From Acaryochloris marina S15 (GTDB taxonomy: Bacteria > Cyanobacteriota > Cyanobacteriia > Thermosynechococcales > Thermosynechococcaceae): a stretch of DNA of 32,000 nucleotides. Numbering within the stretch: position 1 is the first letter of the stretch; each line of letters starts with the position of its first letter. The notes beneath the pieces were generated by a model. The model searched no databases and had not been told where the DNA came from. It saw nothing but the letters and a program-made list of their open reading frames with translations. This document shows, piece by piece, positions 16,699 to 32,000 of the stretch. Position numbers and translations under genes: made by a program. Where the stretch lies: assembly GCF_018336915.1 (NCBI RefSeq), contig NZ_CP064923.1:5430001-5462000 (forward strand), given 5' to 3'.

Positions 16699-18828
16699 AT
16701 GCAAACCGTAGCCAACTACCTACGGTCACTACCAACAGACTATAGAGTTATTTATAGTAAATATTTTCTAGCATTCATTACCTTAGGGTTTATTGCCTAC
16801 GATTTAACTGAAATTGGCCCCAAGATCGGATCCTTATCTCGCACTGTTTTACCCGTTTTACCGATCTGTTCTTCACTGCTGATATTAGGGGCATTAAGGA
16901 TTTTTCTACCCCAACGTCCACCCAAATGGATTCAAGGGCTATTCGTTTTTTTATTGTTTGTTGTGCAAGCCCGATATCTCTTGTGGCGGGCAACCCATAC
17001 TCTAATTTTGAGTGGGCCAGATGGTGTATTTTGCATCGGCCTCTTTGCTTATGAACTGCTCAGCATTCTGAATAGCTGGACCAATAACTATTTAATCTTA
17101 CGGTCTCCCAATCGCAGTCTCGAAGCCGATCAATATAGTCAGTGGGTGCAAAAGACCTATAAGCCCAGCGTCGATATTTTGATCCCCACTTATAATGAAT
17201 CCCACAAAATGTTGGAACGGACGCTGATTGGTTGTAAATCCCTGAAATACCCGAAACAACAAAAACACATTTGGTTACTGGATGATGGACAACGACCCGA
17301 TGTTAAAGCGCTGGCCCAAAAATGGGGATGCAATTACCTCACTCGGCCCATTAATGACCATGCTAAGGCAGGAAACCTCAATCATGCTTTAAAGCATGTC
17401 AGTAGCGAAATTTTGGTGGTTTTTGATGCTGACTTTGTCCCCCTCAATCACTTTTTGGAACGAACCATTGGATTTTTCAAAGCAGACGATAATTTGTCCA
17501 TGGTCGTCACTCCTCAAAAGTTCTACAATCCCGACCCTCCTCAAAAAAACCTAGGCGGGCGGTTTATTACGGATGAGCAAACTGATTTTTACCAAGTGAT
17601 TCAGCCCGCCCGAGATTCTGTCAATGCTGTGGTTTGTTCGGGTAGTTCTGTGCTGTATCGACGCCAGCATTTAGATGCCATTGGTGGCATTCCTCTAGAT
17701 ACCATTGTTGAGGACTATGCCACGGGCATCTTAATGCAAGCTCGGGGTTATAAGACCGTCTATTTAAATGAACTGCTGAGTGTCGGCTGTGCCGCCAACA
17801 ATATTAATGAATATCTAAAACAACGGATGCGTTGGGCAGAAGGCACCTTGAGGATGGTGATTAGCAAACGTAATCCTCTGTGGTTGCCTGGCCTCAACTT
17901 TATACAGCGGTTTACCTATGCTGCGGGCACCCTGTACTGGCTGGAAGAGATGCTGAAAACCTTGAGCTTTTTGGCTCCTCTTTTCTACTTGCTGTTTGGA
18001 TTCAAAAGCATTGACATCACGTTAGGGGAAGCCAGCACCTATACCTTCTATAATTATTCTCTTTCTATGATTGTGATGAGCTGGATGCGAGGCAGCGTCC
18101 TGTTATTGATTATCTATAATCTCTTGCAAGGGTTTCATATTTTCAAAGTTGTACTGAAAATATTTTTATATTCTCAAATCTCTGATTCCTTCCAGGTCAC
18201 GAATAAACAGTTAGATAGCTTTGGTATAAAGTTCAATCTTCACAGTTTGGCGCATATTTTCATACTTTTAGGACTCACTCTATTCGCGATCATGTATGGC
18301 TTATTCCATCCCACAGGTGACGATCTATATATCATCAATCTCATTTGGGCCCAAGTGAATCTGCTCTTTTTAGCAGCAGCCCTGATTGCGGGAGTGAGTG
18401 CCGATCATGATCGGGGACACCCTCGGGTCTTTTCGGATGAGGTCTGCCAGGTAACGACCCAAACAGGACAAAGCGCCATGGGTCAATTTATAGATATTTC
18501 GGAAGCAGGCTGTCGCTTTCGCACCCATAACCCTACCGCACTACAACTGAATGAGACCGTTGAATTAGCCGTACCCAGGACCAGCTTACGAATGATGGCT
18601 GAGATCCGCAATCAGCAGAAAAACGGCACGGTGTATGGCTGCATGTTTAAGGATGTAGACGCGGTCACCCTCTGGAAAATCGTTAACTTTACCTATTGCA
18701 ACCCCCAAAACTGGAAACTGCCTCGAATTCCTACAGAGTGGGATACGATTCGTGCGATCGCATCTGGCTTATACGGCCTCTACCCTTTTCGCAACCTGAA
18801 AGTATCCTGTAAGATCAACCCACGCTAG
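16699..18828 (+). CDS. BcsA-like processive family-2 glycosyltransferase (cellulose-synthase-like) with C-terminal PilZ domain
   Basis: GGAG RBS. GT2 motifs: DILIPTYNES, LLDDG, HAKAGNLN, FDADF, TIVEDYATG, QRMRWAEG (QxxRW) and FQVTNK (FxVTxK). Multiple TM helices on both sides. PilZ signatures: R-G-H-P-R (RxxxR, 18412-18426) and D-I-S-E-A-G (DxSxxG, 18493-18510). Confidence 0.85.
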   Translation: MQTVANYLRSLPTDYRVIYSKYFLAFITLGFIAYDLTEIGPKIGSLSRTVLPVLPICSSLLILGALRIFLPQRPPKWIQGLFVFLLFVVQARYLLWRATHTLILSGPDGVFCIGLFAYELLSILNSWTNNYLILRSPNRSLEADQYSQWVQKTYKPSVDILIPTYNESHKMLERTLIGCKSLKYPKQQKHIWLLDDGQRPDVKALAQKWGCNYLTRPINDHAKAGNLNHALKHVSSEILVVFDADFVPLNHFLERTIGFFKADDNLSMVVTPQKFYNPDPPQKNLGGRFITDEQTDFYQVIQPARDSVNAVVCSGSSVLYRRQHLDAIGGIPLDTIVEDYATGILMQARGYKTVYLNELLSVGCAANNINEYLKQRMRWAEGTLRMVISKRNPLWLPGLNFIQRFTYAAGTLYWLEEMLKTLSFLAPLFYLLFGFKSIDITLGEASTYTFYNYSLSMIVMSWMRGSVLLLIIYNLLQGFHIFKVVLKIFLYSQISDSFQVTNKQLDSFGIKFNLHSLAHIFILLGLTLFAIMYGLFHPTGDDLYIINLIWAQVNLLFLAAALIAGVSADHDRGHPRVFSDEVCQVTTQTGQSAMGQFIDISEAGCRFRTHNPTALQLNETVELAVPRTSLRMMAEIRNQQKNGTVYGCMFKDVDAVTLWKIVNFTYCNPQNWKLPRIPTEWDTIRAIASGLYGLYPFRNLKVSCKINPR

Positions 18829-19304
18829 CCATCGCCACAGTCACCGATAAATGCACTCACTCATAAAATTAAATGCACCTGAACCGTCATTCTTGAGCGA
18901 CACCTGTGTACTATTGAGATCGGACGGATCAACTACGATCTAAGTGTTTCCCCTGATTTGCTCAAGACACATCATGAATTATGCTGTGCCTAGGTAAACA
19001 GGAGTCTTGTTCTTACTTCGTTTAAGATAAAGATTACACCTAAAAAAGGTAGATTTAGACCATTTGAATAACTCACGTTGTCTATGATCTAGTCCAATCA
19101 AGGTAAAGATACTCTTGATCAATTTCCTGGTACTCATTATAGTTTTGGCCCGCTCAACTTAGAGCCCAAGATGATGACACCTTGTTGATTTAAAGTGAAA
19201 CTCTCGTAAAAATACGGAGTATTCAGAGTTAGCTAGAGCGTCTTAATAGGGAATCCTTGTAATGAAGAGCTGTGGGTCTCATGGAGGTAAAAGGGAAGAG
19301 AGAC

Positions 19305-19685
19305 ATGACAACAGTAATGGTAGTTGATGACAGCCCCACCATGCGTGCCATGCTAACGGATATGTTACAGCGCAATGGTCTAGAGGTCATTGAAGCTGAA
19401 GACGGCTTAGCAGCTAAAACAATGCTGCAGGCCAGTAGCTATCCAGACTTGGTGATCACAGATATTGTGATGCCTCGCATGAACGGCTATGAATTGTGCC
19501 GCTGGGTCAAAAATGACCTAACCGACCGCAACTTACCCGTGATTATGTGCTCTACCAAGGGTGAAGCATTTGATCGACATTGGGGCATGAAGCAAGGGGG
19601 AGACGCTTACATTACCAAACCCTTTAACCCCTCAGAAATGCTCGATCTCATTCGTAAGCTACTCAAAACCCGGGCCGAGTCCTAG
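19305..19685 (+). CDS. Single-domain CheY/PilH-like response regulator
   Basis: Receiver motifs: VMVVDDSPTMR, DLVITDIVMPRMNGYELC (phospho-Asp) and the PilH-type tail STKGEAFDRHWGMKQGGDAYITKPF. The ORF opens at GTG 19272. I prefer ATG 19305 (MTTVMVVDD). Confidence 0.85.
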   Translation: MTTVMVVDDSPTMRAMLTDMLQRNGLEVIEAEDGLAAKTMLQASSYPDLVITDIVMPRMNGYELCRWVKNDLTDRNLPVIMCSTKGEAFDRHWGMKQGGDAYITKPFNPSEMLDLIRKLLKTRAES

Positions 19686-19702
19686 GGATTGGGTCAGCCA
19701 AT

Positions 19703-20188
19703 ATGGGAATCGAGATAGAGCGTAAGTTTCTCGTTACAGGAGAAGCATGGCGATCCATGGGCCATAGCGTCCCTCTCATTCAAGGGTATTTAGCAGGAAG
19801 TAATCAGGCCACCGCCAGGGTTCGTATTGCCGGAGACATCGCCTTCCTCACCGTTAAAGGAAGAGTCAAAAATCTGACGAGACAGGAGTTTGAATATGAG
19901 ATCCCTGTAGCTGATGCTCAAGCTATGATGGATCTTTGCCATCCGAGAGTCGTTGAAAAAACCCGCTACAAGATTCCGATAGAAGACCTCATTTGGGAGG
20001 TTGATGAGTTTGCTGGCCAGAATCAAGGGTTAGTCCTGGCAGAAGTAGAGCTGACCTCTCCTGAGCAATCTGTCCCATTACCCGATTGGATCGGCCTAGA
20101 AGTCTCGGATGATCCGAGATATTTCAATTCTTACCTAGCGGCTCATCCCTATAAAACTTGGCCCCATGAGTCAAGCTCCAATCCATAA
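19703..20188 (+). CDS. CYTH-domain protein (triphosphate tunnel metalloenzyme family)
   Basis: N-terminal E-x-E-x-K signature (IEIERKFLV), and later RVR...TVKG, EFEYEI, KTRY and EVEL strands typical of CYTH. It starts 17 nt after the receiver gene. Confidence 0.8.
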   Translation: MGIEIERKFLVTGEAWRSMGHSVPLIQGYLAGSNQATARVRIAGDIAFLTVKGRVKNLTRQEFEYEIPVADAQAMMDLCHPRVVEKTRYKIPIEDLIWEVDEFAGQNQGLVLAEVELTSPEQSVPLPDWIGLEVSDDPRYFNSYLAAHPYKTWPHESSSNP

Positions 20189-24981: not shown

Positions 24982-27900
24982 ATGACCAACCCAGCCAATT
25001 CTCAAGAATCTCATGATGTTATAAGCTCTGATCTTGATCATGATAGAACTTCTGAAATAGAATTCTCGCTTAGCAATAATTCAACTCTCTTAAGCGACCA
25101 GAAAGAAGACGAACATCTGTTTAAAGATGAGACAAAACCACCACAACCTTCCATTGAAGCATTAGAATCTTTATCAATTGAAGGGGCAAGCTCTCAGCAA
25201 AACGATTTCGTTGAACAATATCGTTTCGACGAGTATCTTAACAGCAAAACTTTTTCTCTTTCTCCAAATCTTACCTCTCTACTTAACCCTGCAGAGCAAC
25301 AAGCAAGCTGTTTAAACTGTGGTCAAGTGGGATGCGCTTGTTCACCTAACCGGACCCAGCAACAAGACGACCCTCATTACCATCATGGCCATACGTCACA
25401 CCATCATGGCCATACGTCACACCATGCTCATGGTTTAGAGGGAGACTTCCCTGTATGGAATACAGCTAACACTTCAGCTAATATCAACCCATCTTCTTCT
25501 CTAGCTGTTAGCAATACATTTCAACTCCACAGCAATCCCAATGCGCAACACACGATTTACTTAGACTTTGACGGACATACCACATCCGGAACATGGTGGA
25601 ACAATGGGGGAACCATCCGATCTTCCGCCTATAATCGAGACGGTAATAGCGCGTCTTTCAGTACAAGTGAATTATTAGAAATTCAGTCGATTTGGCAGCA
25701 GGTCGCTGAGGATTTTGCCCCTTTTAATGTCAACGTCACGACCCAAGACCCAGGCGCTGCAGCCTTAAGCAGAACAAGTAGCAGCGACAGTCAATGGGGC
25801 GTTCGTGTTTTATTCACTGATAACCGCAACGAGATAGATGGTACGGCAGTTGCTGCAGGCGCAGGAGGCATTGCCTATGTCGGTAGTTTTAATCGCAATG
25901 TTGATCAGGCCGTTTTTGTTTTTAATAAAGGGGCTAGAGCTGCTGCCGTCACTGCAAGTCATGAAGTTGGGCACAGTTTATATCTCAGGCACGATGGTAT
26001 CAGTGGTCAGACCGCTTACCATCCTGGCCATGGCAGCGGTGCCACGAGTTGGGGCACTATCATGGGAGCCCCTTTTCAGGAAAACCTGACGCAATGGAGT
26101 AAAGGAGATTACTACAACGCAGATAACACTGAAGACGACCTTGCCATCATCACCACAAGAAATGGCTTTGATTATCGCTCCGACGATCATGGCAATAGCC
26201 AAGCCAATGCTTCAGCACTATCCCTAAACAATGCCGGTCAAATGAGTTCCTTCGGCATTATTGAAAGGAATACAGATGTTGACTATTTTTCCTTCACAAC
26301 AGGAGCAGGCGACGTTTCATTTACAATTACTCCTACATCAAAAGCATTCGTTGGGAATGGTAGCGGTGGCTATGCCACTGAATACTTAGATGCTCAAGGC
26401 GCTAATCTCGATATCTGGGCGGGACTATACAACTCTAATGGCACATTGTTAACATCTTCTAACCCGAGCAATCTTTTAACTGCAAGTTTAGACTTGTCCC
26501 TTACTGCAGGAACTTACTTTATCCGCATTGATGGTGTGGGCAAAGATAATCCCTTAGTCAGTGGATCACAAGGCTATTCTGATTATGGCAGTTTGGGCCA
26601 GTATTCAATCCTTGGCAATGTTGAATCACTCTCCGCGAGAATAATTGAAGCATCAGGGAATGCCTCATTACTCACTACGGTGGTTGGTTATCAACTTCAA
26701 GGGCAGGGAGCTGCTGCTCAGTTTCTTCGGTTGAACGGAAATGTGGTCAGCGAAAACACTTTCTCCGGCTGGTCTGCTATTGGTGTAGAGCGGTTAGGGC
26801 AAGGGTATCAGTTACTGTGGAAAAATGTTGATGGACGCTATTTAGACTGGCGGGTGGATGCAAATGGGACTTATCAGAGCTCTCAAAGTATCAGTGAAAC
26901 AGAACTCACTAGTTTAGAACCGACTTTTCAGCAAGATCTCAATGGTGATCAAGAGATTGGATGGGCATCAACGGCGATAGAAACGGTTGGGACTGCCTCC
27001 TTAACAACAACGGCAGTTGGTTATCAACTGCAAGGGCAGGGAGCTGCTGCTCAGTTTCTTTGGTTGAACGGAAATGTGGTCAGCGAAAACACTTTCTCTG
27101 GCTGGTCTGCTATTGGTGTAGAGCGGTTAGGGCAAGGGTATCAATTACTGTGGAAAAATGTTGATGGACGCTATTTAGACTGGCGGGTGGATGCAAATGG
27201 GACTTATCAGAGCTCTCAAAGTATCAGTGAAACAGAACTCACTAGTTTAGAACCGACTTTTCAGCAAGATCTCAATGGTGATCAAGAGATTGGATGGGCA
27301 TCAACGGCGATAGAAACGGTTGGGACTGCCTCCTTAACAACAACGGCAGTTGGTTATCAACTGCAAGGGCAGGGAGCTGCTGCTCAGTTTCTTTGGTTGA
27401 ACGGAAATGTGGTCAGCGAAAACACTTTCTCTAGCTGGTCTGCTATTGGTGTAGAGCGGTTAGGGCAAGGGTATCAGTTACTGTGGAAAAATGTTGATGG
27501 ACGCTATTTAGACTGGCGGGTGGATGCAAATGGGACTTATCAGAGCTCTCAAAGTATCAGTGAAACAGAACTCACTAGTTTAGAACCGACTTTTCAGCAA
27601 GATCTCAATGGTGATCAAGAGATTGGATGGGCATCAACGGCGATAGAAACGGTTGGGACTGCCTCCTTAACAACAACGGCAGTTGGTTATCAACTGCAAG
27701 GGCAGGGAGCTGCTGCTCAGTTTCTTTGGTTGAACGGAAATGTGGTCAGCGAAAACACTTTCTCCGGCTGGTCTGCTATTGGTGTAGAGCGGTTAGGGCA
27801 AGGGTATCAGTTACTGTGGAAAAATGTTGATGGACGCTATTTAGACTGGCGGGTGGATGCAAATGGGACTTATCAGAGCTCTCAAAGTATCAGTGAAACA

Positions 27901-28671
27901 GAACTCACTAGTTTAGAACCGACTTTTCAGCAAGATCTCAATGGTGATCAAGAGATTGGATGGGCATCAACGGCGATAGAAACGGTTGGGACTGCCTCCT
28001 TAACAACAACGGCAGTTGGTTATCAACTGCAAGGGCAGGGAGCTGCTGCTCAGTTTCTTTGGTTGAACGGAAATGTGGTCAGCGAAAACACTTTCTCTGG
28101 CTGGTCTGCTATTGGTGTAGAGCGGTTAGGGCAAGGGTATCAGTTACTGTGGAAAAATGTTGATGGACGCTATTTAGACTGGCGGGTGGATGCAAATGGG
28201 ACTTATCAGAGCTCTCAAAGTATCAGTGAAACAGAACTCACTAGTTTAGAGCCGACTTTTCAGCAAGATCTCAATGGTGATCAGAGAATTGAGCAAGCTT
28301 CTCTCGCTCATAATTTAAGATATGGTGATTTATTACTAGGTGGTCCTAGTGATCAGATGCTGGTGGGGAATGCTAGGAATGATTTGCTAATAGCAGGAGA
28401 TAGCTCAGATCAATTTGTTTTTTTGAATCCCACGGATGGTATTGATACGATTACTGTTATACCTGGTAAAGATTTGATTCAGATCTCTGCTGCAGACTTT
28501 GGCAGGGATTTAGTGGGTGATGTACATTTAGCCAGTGAACAATTTGGATTAGGGGTTGCGGCAACCCCTGACCAGGAAAGTTTTTTGTATGATCAGCTTT
28601 CGGGATATTCACGCTATGATGCTGACGGTATAGATGGCATCGCTTCTATCCATATTGCGACTCTTAGCTGA
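24982..28671 (+). CDS. Large modular extracellular zinc metalloprotease: Cys/His-rich pro-region, reprolysin-like catalytic domain, PPC domain, 5 x 111-aa tandem modules, RTX-like C-terminus
   Basis: Zinc site HEVGHSLYLRHDG (25960-25998), preceded by LHSNPNAQHTIYLDFDGH. Pre-peptidase C-terminal-type domain (DVDYFSFTTGAGDVSFTI...GTYFIRIDGVG). The C-terminal segment LLGGPSDQMLVGNARNDLLIAGDSSDQFVF...YDADG resembles the tail of type I secreted Ca-binding proteins. No N-terminal signal peptide. Confidence 0.85.
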   Translation: MTNPANSQESHDVISSDLDHDRTSEIEFSLSNNSTLLSDQKEDEHLFKDETKPPQPSIEALESLSIEGASSQQNDFVEQYRFDEYLNSKTFSLSPNLTSLLNPAEQQASCLNCGQVGCACSPNRTQQQDDPHYHHGHTSHHHGHTSHHAHGLEGDFPVWNTANTSANINPSSSLAVSNTFQLHSNPNAQHTIYLDFDGHTTSGTWWNNGGTIRSSAYNRDGNSASFSTSELLEIQSIWQQVAEDFAPFNVNVTTQDPGAAALSRTSSSDSQWGVRVLFTDNRNEIDGTAVAAGAGGIAYVGSFNRNVDQAVFVFNKGARAAAVTASHEVGHSLYLRHDGISGQTAYHPGHGSGATSWGTIMGAPFQENLTQWSKGDYYNADNTEDDLAIITTRNGFDYRSDDHGNSQANASALSLNNAGQMSSFGIIERNTDVDYFSFTTGAGDVSFTITPTSKAFVGNGSGGYATEYLDAQGANLDIWAGLYNSNGTLLTSSNPSNLLTASLDLSLTAGTYFIRIDGVGKDNPLVSGSQGYSDYGSLGQYSILGNVESLSARIIEASGNASLLTTVVGYQLQGQGAAAQFLRLNGNVVSENTFSGWSAIGVERLGQGYQLLWKNVDGRYLDWRVDANGTYQSSQSISETELTSLEPTFQQDLNGDQEIGWASTAIETVGTASLTTTAVGYQLQGQGAAAQFLWLNGNVVSENTFSGWSAIGVERLGQGYQLLWKNVDGRYLDWRVDANGTYQSSQSISETELTSLEPTFQQDLNGDQEIGWASTAIETVGTASLTTTAVGYQLQGQGAAAQFLWLNGNVVSENTFSSWSAIGVERLGQGYQLLWKNVDGRYLDWRVDANGTYQSSQSISETELTSLEPTFQQDLNGDQEIGWASTAIETVGTASLTTTAVGYQLQGQGAAAQFLWLNGNVVSENTFSGWSAIGVERLGQGYQLLWKNVDGRYLDWRVDANGTYQSSQSISETELTSLEPTFQQDLNGDQEIGWASTAIETVGTASLTTTAVGYQLQGQGAAAQFLWLNGNVVSENTFSGWSAIGVERLGQGYQLLWKNVDGRYLDWRVDANGTYQSSQSISETELTSLEPTFQQDLNGDQRIEQASLAHNLRYGDLLLGGPSDQMLVGNARNDLLIAGDSSDQFVFLNPTDGIDTITVIPGKDLIQISAADFGRDLVGDVHLASEQFGLGVAATPDQESFLYDQLSGYSRYDADGIDGIASIHIATLS
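25381..25422 (+). repeat. Perfect 21-bp tandem duplication (catcatggccatacgtcacac x2)
   Basis: Positions 25381-25401 are identical to 25402-25422. The duplication is in frame and encodes HHGHTSH-HHGHTSH within DDPHYHHGHTSHHHGHTSHHAHG. Confidence 0.95.
26641..28290 (+). repeat. Five in-frame tandem copies of a 333-bp (111-aa) unit
   Basis: Unit starts are at about 26641, 26974, 27307, 27640 and 27973. Units 2-5 differ from each other at only 1-3 positions by manual alignment (tctggc/tctagc/tccggc; caatta/cagtta; gaaccg/gagccg). Unit 1 diverges only in its first 60 nt or so. Unit 5 decays after ggtgatcag (about 28283). Confidence 0.95.
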
Positions 28672-28895
28672 AGGCCTGGGCTATCTCCTTAAGATATTCA
28701 ACTTGTGCTTTAATGTGAGCTATTTTTCATTGGGTTGATAATCCTCACATCATTAAGTACTAAGAAACACAAATTTCTAAAGAGTCAATCTAGCAACTTG
28801 TAACAGTCGTGCTACCCTGTTGGCAATTCTAATTATTTTGTCTTGGAATTAGCTTTCCCTAGATGAGCGCCACATTAGTTCGACCGAAGTAATTT

Positions 28896-31800
28896 GTGTA
28901 CGTAAAACAACTCGAGCTTTCTCATTTCAAGTCTTTTGGTAGCACCACTTCGATTCCTTTGCTGCCAGGGTTTACGGTTGTTAGCGGACCGAATGGTTCC
29001 GGTAAATCTAATTTATTAGATGCCTTGTTGTTTGCCTTGGGATTAGCAGGGTCACGGGGAATGCGGGCGGAGCGTTTGCCAGACTTGGTAAATCATGCCC
29101 AAATTAAGCGGGGACATGCGATCGCAGAGACCCGAGTCACGGTCACCTTCGAACTATCCCCCCAAGAGCTGGAAGAGTTAGCAGCAGCGGAAGCTGCCGA
29201 AGCCGAAGAAGCCGAAAGACACACCGACACCACGACGGTATCAGCGATACCAAAACCGGATACGGAATCCACTCTAGCCCCCAATGAATGGCAGGTAACT
29301 CGCAAACTGCGGGTGACCAAGCAAGGCACCTATACCTCGTCCTATGCCATTAATGGCGAGTCCTGCACCCTCACCCAGCTCCACGAGCAGCTGAATCGCC
29401 GTCGGATTTATCCAGAGGGCTATAACGTCGTCCTCCAAGGGGACGTCACCAGCATTATTTCCATGAACGCCCGGCAACGCCGAGAAATTATTGATGAGCT
29501 GGCCGGGGTTGCTAACTTTGACCGGCGGATTAATCAGGCCAAAGATAAGCTAGATGCCGTTAAAGATCAAGAAGAGCGTTCCCGCATCGTCGAGCAGGAA
29601 CTCAATGATCAGTGCGAACGCCTAGCCCGTGATCGGATCAAAGCGGAAAAGTATCAGAAACTGCGCACTGAACTGCAATCGAAAGCGGCCTGGGAAGGGG
29701 TGCTTGCCTGGCGTGACTTACAAGCCCAGATTGACAAGAAACAAAAACAACTCGCCACGGAACAGAAAACCCAAGCCAAGCTAGAGACCGAAACAACGGT
29801 ATTAGCCACGGAATTAGAAGAAATCTCCCAGAAGCTGGCAACCCTCAATGCCCAAGTCAAAGCTCTAGGAGAAGAAGAACATCTCGCCCTCCAAGCTCAA
29901 ATTGCCACCCAGGAAGCTGAACTCAAGCAGCTCCAGCGCCAGCAAGGTGAACTGGAGCAATCGCAACAGCAAGTCGCCCAATCCATTCAACATACGCAAC
30001 AGCAACTGCAAACCTTCCAGGCTGAGATTAAGCAGGTTAGTGAACAACACCAAATATTAACCACTACTGAAGTTGCCCGGTTAACTCAGGCTCGTGAACA
30101 GGCCCAGCAAGCCCTGGATACCACCCGGCAACAGGCTCAGGCCATTGCCCAATCTGCTGATGCCTGGATCGAGCAGCAATCCCACCTGAATCAGCAAATC
30201 AAAACGGTTCTGCAAGCTTTGGAACCCCAGCGGGCCGAACAAGCTCAACTACAAGAGCGGGTCCAGCAATTAGATCGCCAAAGCGATCTCCAGCAGCAAT
30301 CGGTTCAGCAGATCGCCCAAGAGTTGACGGAGACCCAAGAACAGCTAGAGGCAGCTGAAGCTGAGGTCTTACAACGACAAGAGCAGGTGCAAGATTGTGC
30401 GGGTGCGATCGCAGAAGTGGATCACGATATCAATACCCAGCAAGAAACCCACAATCGACTGCTACGCGAACAACAAGAGAAGCAGCGCCAGCTCGACAAA
30501 CTAGAAGCCCAAGAACAGGCCCAGCAAGAAGTTCAGGGTACCCATGCCACCCATATCATTCGTAAAGCCAAACTGGCAGGAGTCCATGGTCTCGTAGCTC
30601 AACTAGGGCAAGTAGATGCCCATTATCAAACCGCCTTAGAAATTGCTGCGGGCGGTCGCCTTGGTTGTCTAGTCGTCGATGATGACGCCGTCGCCTCAGC
30701 CGGCATTGACCTCTTAAAGCGAGAGCGAGGCGGACGAGCGACCTTCTTGCCCCTGAATAAAATGCGCCCCCCGAAGGGACTGCCCTCCTTAACCGCCTCA
30801 GGTGCCATTGATTTTGCCATCGAACTGATCGATTTTGACCCGATTTATGAACCAATTTTTGCCTTTGTATTTGGCAATACCGTTGTCTTCAAAACCCTGA
30901 GTGATGCCCGTCGCCATATCGGTAAATACCGGATGGTGACGCTGGATGGAGAACTTCTGGAACCCACGGGTGCCATGACGGGAGGCAGCCGCAATCGCCA
31001 TAACACCCTTCATTTTGGTACGGGTGAAGCAGGAGAATCAGCTGCCATTATGGCGTTGAAACAACGCCTATCAGAAATTGCGACGTTGCTACAGCCCATT
31101 GAAAACAAAATTGAGCAGACCCAAGCTCGATTAACCAGTAAACATCAAGAGTTAAGCGGCCTGCGTCAGCAACATCGTGAGGCCCAGCTCAAAACGGAAC
31201 AGTTGCAGAAAGAACTCAAGGTGTTGGCCGACCGACAAGCCCACCTAGAAAAGCAGCAGCAAACCTATGGCCTAGATTTGAAGGGCGCTCAGGATCGCCT
31301 CCAGACCCTGCAAACCAATTTGCCCCAACAAGAAACAGAGTTAGAACAGCTGCGAGAATCCCTAGAAGAACTGGAACAGTCCCAAACCCACGGTGAATGG
31401 AAGACCCTACAAAACCAGATTCAGGGCCAAGAGTCGATTGTGGCCGGACGAGAACAGGCCCTGCGCGAAGTCCAACAAAAGATTCAAGAGCTGACTAGCC
31501 AGCAAGAGCGTCTGCACGAGAAACAAGAACAGGCCGAGGTCACCCTCCAAACCTTGCACACCCAAACCGAAACCCAGGTCACCCAAAAAACCGAAAATCA
31601 AGAACAGCAACAGAAAATCGAGGCCACCATCGCCACGTTCCGCACCGAGTTGGGTAAATTGGAAGAGCGCTTAGGGAGTGAGAAACAAGAACGCGATCGC
31701 GTCGAGACCCATCTACAAGAACGCACCGCTGCCCATCAGCAATTGCTATGGCAAATCCAAAAAACCCAAGATAAGCAGCAGGAGCAACAAGAGCTAATTC

Positions 31801-32000
31801 AGCAGCTACAAACCCAACTACAAGCCAAAGCAACAGAACTCCCCGACCCCTTACCGGAAATTCCGGATGACCTCACCCTAGAGCAGCTTCGCGAGGAATT
31901 GCAAAAGCTGCAAAAGCGCCTCCAGGCCATGGAGCCGGTGAATATGCTGGCCATCGAGGAATACGAGCGGACCCAAGAGCGGCTGGTTGAGTTAACGGAC
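28896..32000 (+). CDS. smc: Chromosome segregation protein SMC (5' partial, runs off the window)
   Basis: It is absent from the ORF track because it has a GTG start and no stop in the window. My translation begins (M)YVKQLELSHFKSFGSTTSIPLLPGFTVVSGPNGSGKSNLLDALLFALG (Walker A). This is followed by a long Q/E-rich coiled coil, then the hinge (GVHGLVAQLGQVDAHYQTALEIAAGGRLGCLVVDD...TFLPLNK...GKYRMVTLDGELLEPTGAMTGG), then a second coiled coil. The frame is open for 1035 codons to position 32000. Confidence 0.9.
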   Translation, partial: MYVKQLELSHFKSFGSTTSIPLLPGFTVVSGPNGSGKSNLLDALLFALGLAGSRGMRAERLPDLVNHAQIKRGHAIAETRVTVTFELSPQELEELAAAEAAEAEEAERHTDTTTVSAIPKPDTESTLAPNEWQVTRKLRVTKQGTYTSSYAINGESCTLTQLHEQLNRRRIYPEGYNVVLQGDVTSIISMNARQRREIIDELAGVANFDRRINQAKDKLDAVKDQEERSRIVEQELNDQCERLARDRIKAEKYQKLRTELQSKAAWEGVLAWRDLQAQIDKKQKQLATEQKTQAKLETETTVLATELEEISQKLATLNAQVKALGEEEHLALQAQIATQEAELKQLQRQQGELEQSQQQVAQSIQHTQQQLQTFQAEIKQVSEQHQILTTTEVARLTQAREQAQQALDTTRQQAQAIAQSADAWIEQQSHLNQQIKTVLQALEPQRAEQAQLQERVQQLDRQSDLQQQSVQQIAQELTETQEQLEAAEAEVLQRQEQVQDCAGAIAEVDHDINTQQETHNRLLREQQEKQRQLDKLEAQEQAQQEVQGTHATHIIRKAKLAGVHGLVAQLGQVDAHYQTALEIAAGGRLGCLVVDDDAVASAGIDLLKRERGGRATFLPLNKMRPPKGLPSLTASGAIDFAIELIDFDPIYEPIFAFVFGNTVVFKTLSDARRHIGKYRMVTLDGELLEPTGAMTGGSRNRHNTLHFGTGEAGESAAIMALKQRLSEIATLLQPIENKIEQTQARLTSKHQELSGLRQQHREAQLKTEQLQKELKVLADRQAHLEKQQQTYGLDLKGAQDRLQTLQTNLPQQETELEQLRESLEELEQSQTHGEWKTLQNQIQGQESIVAGREQALREVQQKIQELTSQQERLHEKQEQAEVTLQTLHTQTETQVTQKTENQEQQQKIEATIATFRTELGKLEERLGSEKQERDRVETHLQERTAAHQQLLWQIQKTQDKQQEQQELIQQLQTQLQAKATELPDPLPEIPDDLTLEQLREELQKLQKRLQAMEPVNMLAIEEYERTQERLVELTD

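Follow-up and report, generated by a model that had tools for sequence, protein, structure and literature searches.

A tandem array of five W_rich_C (PF07483) units in an Acaryochloris marina metalloprotease: homogenised repeats, variable unit number and a possible calcium-stabilised extension

The extender regions of RTX adhesins are composed of identical repeats in tandem, the linkers of which contain Ca2+, as in region II of the Marinomonas primoryensis protein MpIBP/MpAFP (PMC4083281, PMC7493085). These repeats are ~100–110 residues long, have an immunoglobulin (Ig)-like fold and occur in tens to ~120 copies, in an adhesin with an N-terminal retention module. Loops of the DxDxDG class, to which D-x-N-x-D spacing is similar, are a feature of the EF-hand and dockerin type I families, and serralysin-type and other metalloproteases with an M10 or M12 head and RTX C-terminal domains are cargo of type I secretion systems (T1SS). 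An array that can be compared with each of these is present in a 32,000 nucleotide stretch of the A. marina S15 genome (contig NZ_CP064923.1, positions 5,430,001 to 5,462,000; hereafter the window), where five near-identical units of 333 nt stand in tandem within a complete gene for a zinc metalloprotease. From its sequence, the 111 aa unit is a full-length member of Pfam family PF07483 (W_rich_C), which is a named family, yet uncharacterised in function. On balance, the array is considered to be an extracellular, Ca2+-stabilised, semi-rigid extension that spaces or presents the protease head, the length of which would be set by recombination.

A single tandem array was identified by Tandem Repeats Finder at 26683–28287, with a period of 333, 4.8 copies, 99% matches and 0 indels, and a separate repeat search of the window found five copies at a spacing of exactly 333 nt. 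The array lies inside the ORF (open reading frame) of the protease gene, which is the sole long one of this region and in which the five units are in frame and span 26629–28293; on neither strand is the array overlapped by another ORF of at least 100 aa. An earlier note on this DNA, made from the letters alone, had placed the repeats at 26641–28290, which is correct to within about a dozen bases. An array of five such units is far beyond chance. Any two of units 2, 3 and 4 differ by exactly 2 nt, and the variable sites are positions 138, 139 and 183 of the unit. Relative to these three, unit 5 has 2 nt of difference plus six changes within its last 10 nt, which are the end of the array. In unit 1, 26 of the first 54 nt are mismatched, after which only 2–4 sites differ, such that ~275 nt are conserved. 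Codon-pair variants (TCT-GGC, TCT-AGC and TCC-GGC) cluster at unit positions 136–141. The earlier account of the near-identity of the later units, the conserved part of unit 1 and this codon-pair cluster is therefore accurate, with the addition that unit 5 departs further only at the array end. The C-terminus of units 1–4 is FQQDLNGDQEIG and that of unit 5 is FQQDLNGDQRIE. Each unit contains 12 acidic and 4 basic residues.

The whole protein matches PF07483 in five stretches with 411.4 bits (E=1.2e-125), and a single unit matches the complete profile with its residues 11–111 (Table 1); the curated gathering threshold of the family is 26.2 bits. The signature columns of the family are also present in the units: an I-E-x-x-G start, GW-PIGAE, GY-V-WK, Y-VW-tD-GNY and an E-x3-F-x-Q-D-L-N-G-D-G-x-I-G end. 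The earlier note named no characterised family for the unit, which does map cleanly onto a named one, W_rich_C. The similar modules that the note mentions from cyanobacterial and proteobacterial exoproteins are confirmed by homologue and motif searches. It had also been proposed that a clean match to a well-characterised family with a known role would count against the interpretation; the family is indeed known, but it is not well characterised. A phmmer search of 1.84 billion representative proteins found 1444 clusters at E≤0.001, typically with 3–13 units per protein. The consensus of 825 units from 185 proteins is t.IEs.GsT.L...Y.L...GP.Lky.GapVtaGqFGgWtPIGAE.tagGYeVaWKn...gqY.vW.tDsnGNy.S...LeslEt.FqQDLNGDGtIG, and the window units are in register with it, their terminal motif departing only at loop position 6 (Gln for Gly). 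In this alignment the terminal motif is the best-conserved part of W_rich_C, with E(-5) in 93%, F(-2) in 78%, N3 in 88%, D5 in 89%, G6 in 83% and G9 in 82% of units, and with Q0, D1 and I8 also conserved. D-x-N-x-D is present in 74% of 504 non-redundant units.

The median identity between units of the same protein is 67% across the family, compared with ~35% between proteins. At 94.6% at the protein level, the window protein belongs to the top tenth of the family; 90% or more is reached by 17 of 171 multi-unit proteins. High identity among the units of one protein is a habit of the family. In its tandem layout, ~111 aa period and terminal FQQDLNGD-x-IG the window array is typical of PF07483, and nothing essential differs. 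One mention of PF07483 or W_rich_C was found in the literature, in a survey of domain architectures without functional data (PMC2605481); searches for the DLNGDG motif in the context of W_rich_C found nothing, and those on Acaryochloris RTX proteins and metalloproteases found no functional data for W_rich_C. Up to 28 RTX proteins have been counted in A. marina MBIC11017 (PMC3034196). Comparison of one unit with the PDB by sequence gave chance-level matches only (DARPins), as did a 56-row profile, for which an EF-hand protein over the helix-loop segment was not significant (E=0.6). A word-indexed homologue search with a single unit gave no scored match.

Variation in unit number between strains, predicted in the earlier note, is real: at the syntenic locus, five Acaryochloris genomes or contigs have arrays of 6, 5, 4, 3 and 2 units (Table 1). 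Over the 263 nt used for comparison of unit cores, units inside one array differ by 0–7 nt. The cores of the window differ from those of MBIC11017 or the metagenome contig by 37–44 nt, and the range for all distant pairs is 33–46 nt (14–17%), which is the same as the 14–16% divergence of the non-repeat parts of the gene between distant strains. These numbers bear out the proposal of ongoing homogenisation or gene conversion. In all strains unit 1 starts with LSARIIEASG... and the later units with WASTAIETVG..., and the array end, the junction of units 1 and 2 and the distinct edge of unit 1 are likewise common to all. At least two units were therefore present before the strains diverged. Strain-specific substitutions are nevertheless spread across whole arrays: five sites are changed in all six NIES-2412 units, an R-to-W change is present in window units 2–5, and the first and last unit cores carry the substitutions of their own strain. 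MBIC11017 unit 1, for example, differs from unit 3 of the same array by 7 nt and from unit 1 of the window by 39 nt. Since the cores are specific to the strain although at least two units are ancestral, the process is concerted evolution and more than independent recent duplication.

Duplication of a single ancestral unit in each strain, without gene conversion or homogenisation, would by itself also yield near-identical copies, and in NIES-2412 no differences at all are seen among the internal units (100% identity). This is a very improbable explanation of the arrays as a whole, because the two types of unit start and the array end are shared and because the first and last cores have followed their own strain. 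On these comparisons the units are homogenised by unequal crossing-over or gene conversion within the 1.6 kb tract, and recombination alters unit number, from 2 to 6 between strains. The ratio of nonsynonymous to synonymous substitution rates (omega) against distant strains is 0.09–0.14 for the units and 0.14–0.19 for the protease part, at a synonymous divergence (dS) of ~0.7–0.9. The units are under purifying selection.

A count of five could also be produced by assembly, through collapse or inflation of the repeat. Short reads cannot resolve a 1.6 kb tract of 99% identical 333 nt units, several Bradyrhizobium draft contigs of 650–1040 bp are little but W_rich_C units, and of all the counts that of NIES-2412, with six identical units in a draft, is the least secure. 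For the window such an error is most unlikely: the array is located within a 5.88 Mb contig, its reading frame is exact, and units 2, 3 and 4 each have a unique combination of single nucleotide polymorphisms. In addition, at the same locus there are 3 units on the MBIC11017 contig (6.50 Mb) and 4 on that of Moss Beach (5.70 Mb), both of multi-megabase length, so the variation is real even if one count is wrong. Two Bradyrhizobium draft contigs (L074 and L065, 651–762 bp) and the end of a 177 kb scaffold (L055) consist largely of W_rich_C units. Copy numbers from draft genomes should be distrusted because short-read assemblies break at these arrays.

AlphaFold2 models were built on a 56-row alignment of units. 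The one-unit model has a mean predicted local distance difference test (pLDDT) of 88 and a predicted template modelling score (pTM) of 0.79, and consists of seven or eight strands, the helix ISETELTSLEPTF and then the D-L-N-G-D loop. For three units, pLDDT is 92.8 and pTM 0.70. Residues at the junctions have a pLDDT of ~90, and the junction is therefore taken to be ordered, not floppy. In this model E-x3-F-x-Q-D-L-N-G-D-(G)-x-I-G is predicted to pass straight into I-E-x-x-G, the first strand of the next unit. A Foldseek search of the PDB with one unit gave no match at E<0.001, the best having E=0.018 and TM-scores not exceeding 0.44. With three units there were 232 matches at E<0.001, and all 50 among the matches listed are beta-propeller proteins or propeller-containing assemblies, at TM-scores of 0.15–0.21 and root-mean-square deviations of ~17–28 Å. 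Accordingly no solved structure with the W_rich_C fold was matched in the PDB by sequence, profile or Foldseek. The units are predicted to be compact beta domains made of propeller-blade-like four-stranded meanders, each unit aligning locally to two blades, with no toroid closure. A closed propeller built from the units is ruled out by the same TM-scores and deviations, and also because unit number varies (1–13) and a helix and loop separate the units. Nor is the predicted fold an Ig-like beta-sandwich: BIg and other extender domains were not matched in Foldseek, one unit having no match at E<0.001 and three units matching only propellers among the matches listed.

The earlier note called the terminal loop EF-hand/dockerin-like. 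The resemblance holds, but membership of either family does not. Acaryochloris loops have D1, N3, D5 and I8, so that the D-x-N-x-D spacing, the Ile at position 8 and the preceding helix are shared with EF-hand and dockerin type I loops. Position 6 is Gln, Thr or Glu (Gln in the window), compared with the predominant Gly of the family, and position 12 is Ser in the window and T, S, A, P or G in the family, never acidic. In the one- and three-unit models a helix precedes the loop, and coil leading into a beta strand comes after it. No EF-hand or dockerin profile of Pfam matches the window protein at E≤1. In other W_rich_C members EF-hand_5, EF-hand_1 and Dockerin_1 match the loop weakly and below threshold; the PF00404 matches are marginal, single stretches of 14–15 residues, none of which passes alone. 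A canonical EF-hand is rejected on the Gln at position 6, the non-acidic position 12, the lack of an exiting helix and the lack of a Pfam match, and a type I dockerin on the absence of PF00404 from the window protein at this level. The acidic junction loops may bind Ca2+, for which an almost invariant Glu, located five residues ahead of D1, and the conserved I-E of the next unit are candidate further ligands.

Several features bear on a possible export of the protein. It has no N-terminal hydrophobic signal, the maximum 15 aa Kyte-Doolittle hydropathy in the first 200 aa being 0.71, and its N-terminal region is acidic; lack of an N-terminal Sec signal peptide and an acidic protein are both traits of T1SS substrates. 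Like the serralysin-type T1SS metalloproteases, it combines a signal-less zinc protease head with an RTX-type tail. Close homologues of its protease part carry the annotation of RTX protein and have PF00353, a domain recorded in the P0004 orthologue and many other protease-domain homologues, and some other W_rich_C proteins have Peptidase_M10, M10_C and RTX. It differs from the serralysins in having a Reprolysin_3/5 (M12-like) catalytic domain and not M10, a Tyr in place of Gly in the zinc motif, a degenerate RTX block, a truncated tail and no adjacent T1SS genes. The RTX match of the tail is a single stretch to PF00353 with 16.3 bits (E=0.0097), where the cutoff is 23. Gene linkage to a transporter is not obligatory for T1SS cargo.

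Elsewhere in the family such linkage is found. On a Reyranella contig, a C39-ABC transporter and an AprE/HlyD-type fusion protein have four W_rich_C proteins around them, three with Peptidase_M8(-like) heads and one with Peptidase_S8 plus RTX. The same pairing of W_rich_C with T1SS ABC and fusion genes is present on a metagenome contig at a locus unrelated to that of Reyranella. The Reyranella locus (metagenome-assembled genome, L005 1–17986) has the look of an island dedicated to the secretion of W_rich_C proteases. Domains that accompany W_rich_C in other proteins are Peptidase_M10 with M10_C and RTX, FG-GAP, CAP and cadherin-like domains, so that the heads vary and are of protease or adhesin type; this variety suggests a generic scaffold. 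From the T1SS pairing and the partner domains, W_rich_C is a module of T1SS-type exoproteins, often proteases. A back-translated signature motif at unit-like spacing was found in many genomes of Bradyrhizobium, Reyranella, Rhodospirillales and Acetobacteraceae and in some cyanobacteria.

The C-terminal tail in the window has been shortened. A TCA-to-TGA nonsense change in the 28669–28713 region ends the protein at ...IHIATLS, with loss of the ancestral last 14 residues. The orthologues of MBIC11017, the metagenome contig (P0003) and P0004 share the end SKPELFHQDIQLVL followed by a stop, and the truncation is common to the window strain, NIES-2412 and Moss Beach, which are the three strains carrying the most units (4–6). 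This raises the question of gene decay, in which the premature stop removed a C-terminal secretion signal, export was lost and the expansion of the array was neutral drift. The nonsense change is followed by a second in-frame stop, the tail has an omega of 0.38–0.50 against distant strains, and against NIES-2412 it has 9 nonsynonymous and 2 synonymous changes, all of which fit decay, as does the coincidence of truncation with large arrays. Decay is nevertheless improbable. Each of the three truncated strains retains an undisrupted 3.7 kb ORF, and omega between these strains is 0.14–0.22 for the protease part and the units (on small counts). The catalytic residues are intact, and nine of the 13 variable core sites are synonymous. 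In addition, T1SS signals are not limited to a stretch as short as the final 14 residues.

The mechanism proposed for the array is as follows. The protein would be exported by type I secretion, after which the acidic junction loops would bind Ca2+ outside the cell. The bound Ca2+ would stiffen the array into an elongated, semi-rigid extension, which would space or present the protease/PPC head at the N-terminus with respect to the tail at the C-terminus, and changes in unit number through recombination would tune its length. This would be parallel in mechanism to the Ca2+-clamped extenders of the RTX adhesins, with a different fold and without homology. The two are alike in having near-identical repeats of ~100–110 residues in a T1SS-type, RTX-tailed, acidic exoprotein, with an acidic element at the junction (its order being predicted by the model in the window protein) and a variable copy number. 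They differ in that the W_rich_C fold is non-Ig, the copies number 2–6, Ca2+ is inferred from the motif and the cargo carried by the array is a protease. In favour of the mechanism, the strongest conservation of the family is at the junction between units, and the sub-threshold EF-hand and dockerin matches fall exactly on the loop.

Several observations weigh against it. Searches of the PDB and the literature found no solved structure or experiment for any W_rich_C domain, and the rigidity of the array is read from pTM and pLDDT only. The Acaryochloris loop is non-Gly at position 6, and the family does not have the acidic position 12 of an EF-hand. The RTX match of the tail is below threshold, the lineage of the window strain has lost the final 14 residues that the ancestral tail had, and there are no T1SS genes (ABC transporter or membrane-fusion) within the 32 kb window. 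Five units would make only a short stalk. Homologues in picocyanobacteria retain the beta domain and swap the loop for Pro/Thr-rich linkers, and since joining by linkers is usual for independent binding modules, the domain may be more than a spacer.

The picocyanobacterial homologues (Cyanobium/Synechococcus, P0013–P0117) follow the same overall plan of protease, PPC and W_rich_C. In place of the D-L-N-G-D-G-x-I-G loop their units have the ending QQQFxVDxxGxP, and Pro/Thr-rich linkers connect one unit to the next. A different, conserved C-terminus (...TTPWLVxTQPLL) replaces the RTX tail, and some of the proteins have units on both sides of the protease.

These homologues draw attention to another possible role, less probable than that of an extension, in which the units are ligand-binding modules multiplied for avidity. 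They would recognise an exopolysaccharide, a cell-surface glycan or a substrate polymer and tether the protease to the envelope, sheath or substrate, with the Trp and Tyr residues as binding surfaces and the loop merely stabilising the fold. The aromatic residues are conserved family-wide (in GW-PIGAE, GY-V-WK and Y-VW-tD-GNY) and are kept in the loop-less picocyanobacterial proteins, which have the Pro/Thr-rich linkers often seen with carbohydrate-binding modules. The local structural likeness to propeller blades includes those of fucose lectins and B12-binding surface lipoproteins, and the diversity of enzyme heads is as expected of a generic anchor. Conservation, however, peaks at the junction between units and no pocket can be identified. 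There is no significant match to a lectin or carbohydrate-binding module by sequence or by fold (TM-scores as above for one and three units), and the gene neighbourhood, conserved but functionally unrelated, suggests no ligand. The ordered junction of the three-unit model also favours a stalk over a binding array. The two roles are compatible and not exclusive.

Table 1. Features of the protease gene in the window, and W_rich_C unit numbers in related proteins
Feature	Position or protein	Strand	Remarks
Complete protease gene, 1229 aa	24982..28671	+	Identical to A. marina WP_212663540.1 / QUY42371.1, 'zinc-dependent metalloprotease family protein' (NCBI annotation)
Cys motif CLNCGQVGCAC	25309..25341	+	Holds all four cysteines of the protein; upstream of protease core
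His-rich stretch HYHHGHTSHHHGHTSHHAHG	25375..25434	+	Partly from a 21 bp tandem repeat at 25379-25425, 2.2 copies, in frame, HHGHTSH twice
M12/reprolysin-like zinc protease core	25771..26073	+	PF13582 Reprolysin_3, 27.5-30 bits, cutoff 22.4
Zinc motif HEVGHSLYLRHD	25960-25995	+	Three His, Glu and terminal Asp all present
Candidate Met-turn GTIMGAP	26053-26073	+	Downstream of zinc motif
Beta-rich domain, PPC-like (weak, tentative)	26182..26628	+	Between protease and array; PF04151 PPC E=1.1; Por_Secre_tail E=0.015
W_rich_C unit 1	26629..26961	+	First 54 nt are array-edge sequence, not homogenised
W_rich_C unit 2	26962..27294	+	As single unit: 95.3 bits, E=2.8e-27, profile positions 1-105 of 105
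W_rich_C unit 3	27295..27627	+	Sole amino acid difference among units 2-4: Gly to Ser (GGC to AGC)
W_rich_C unit 4	27628..27960	+	In-frame cut
W_rich_C unit 5	27961..28293	+	Last 10 nt diverge at array edge: DQRIE, not DQEIG
D-L-N-G-D-Q junction loops (five)	26935-26952, 27268-27285, 27601-27618, 27934-27951, 28267-28284	+	Predicted helix ISETELTSLEPTF before each
C-terminal tail, 125 aa	28294..28671	+	Degenerate RTX-like nonapeptides at 28330-28422; ends ...IHIATLS-TGA
Relic of last 14 codons	28672..28713	+	Reads RPGLSP(stop)DIQLVL(stop) in frame; SKPELFHQDIQLVL(stop) in MBIC11017
Array of NIES-2412	P0001		6 units; syntenic locus; draft assembly
Array of window strain	WP_212663540.1		5 units
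Array of 'Moss Beach'	P0271		4 units; syntenic locus
Array of MBIC11017 (CP000828.1)	P0002		3 units; syntenic locus
Array of metagenome contig	P0003		2 units; syntenic locus
More distant homologue	P0004		1 unit, with true RTX repeats

The earlier note had assigned the array to a metalloprotease gene, and this is supported by a PF13582 match above its cutoff and by the presence of HEVGHSLYLRHD. With the candidate Met-turn, these features point to a metzincin-like zinc protease. The motif has a Tyr at the position that is normally Gly in metzincins (HExxHxxGxxH). This Tyr is kept in the Acaryochloris clade and in P0004, while the Cyanobium homologues have the canonical Gly. A motif similar to CLNCGQVGCAC, CGCRACS, is conserved in the picocyanobacterial homologues; that the cysteine motif could be a latency element of the cysteine-switch type is speculation. 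The His-rich stretch varies by strain, being HYHEGH... in NIES-2412 and Moss Beach and much shorter in MBIC11017, which does not have the HHGHTSH duplication. For the domain between the protease and the array, the MBIC11017 orthologue is named 'Bacterial pre-peptidase C-terminal domain' in one source, and an NCBIfam scan of the protein found nothing beyond a sub-threshold match to a type IX secretion (T9SS) tail.

Upstream of the protease gene are genes for a PilZ-domain family-2 glycosyltransferase, a response regulator, a CYTH-domain protein, a Band 7 protein, a histidine kinase, a UPF0093 protein and MsrA, and downstream is an SMC gene. An operon link to a T1SS or to these neighbours was rejected, as the neighbours, although syntenic in every strain, have unrelated functions and lie for the most part on the opposite strand. 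The glycosyltransferase, which is cellulose-synthase-like and from its PilZ domain probably controlled by cyclic di-GMP, is followed by the response regulator and the CYTH-domain gene at 16699–20188, a block that is syntenic in the strains examined; no link between it and the protease was found. A long ORF from ~28890 to 32000 (+) runs off the end of the window and encodes the SMC chromosome-segregation protein (SMC_N plus hinge in the orthologous loci), and it accounts for the lack of ORFs listed downstream of the protease gene. In MBIC11017, an inserted DDE transposase gene (L001 5791–7209) separates msrA from the protease gene; the window, NIES-2412 and Moss Beach do not have this transposase gene.

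The array is a clean textbook case in an ordinary PF07483 member, and not a new kind of system. Homogenisation of tandem repeats with change in copy number is already well understood. The value of the locus is as a well-sampled example, in which five Acaryochloris genomes or contigs have 2–6 units with the edges of the array preserved and the cores homogenised under purifying selection. It also exposes a gap, in that a family of more than 1400 representative clusters, with a confident predicted fold that has no solved relative, a strikingly conserved acidic junction and a recurrent association with T1SS genes and secreted proteases, is yet uncharacterised by experiment. A broader proposal is made here only tentatively: W_rich_C may be a structurally new, Ca2+-clamped module and thereby a second class of extender or presenter, not Ig-like, for exoproteins exported by type I secretion, mainly in Alphaproteobacteria and cyanobacteria. 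Such a module would hold M8, M10, M12-like and S8 proteases at a set distance from the cell or the substrate, with a reach that may be tuned over short evolutionary times by recombination in the array.

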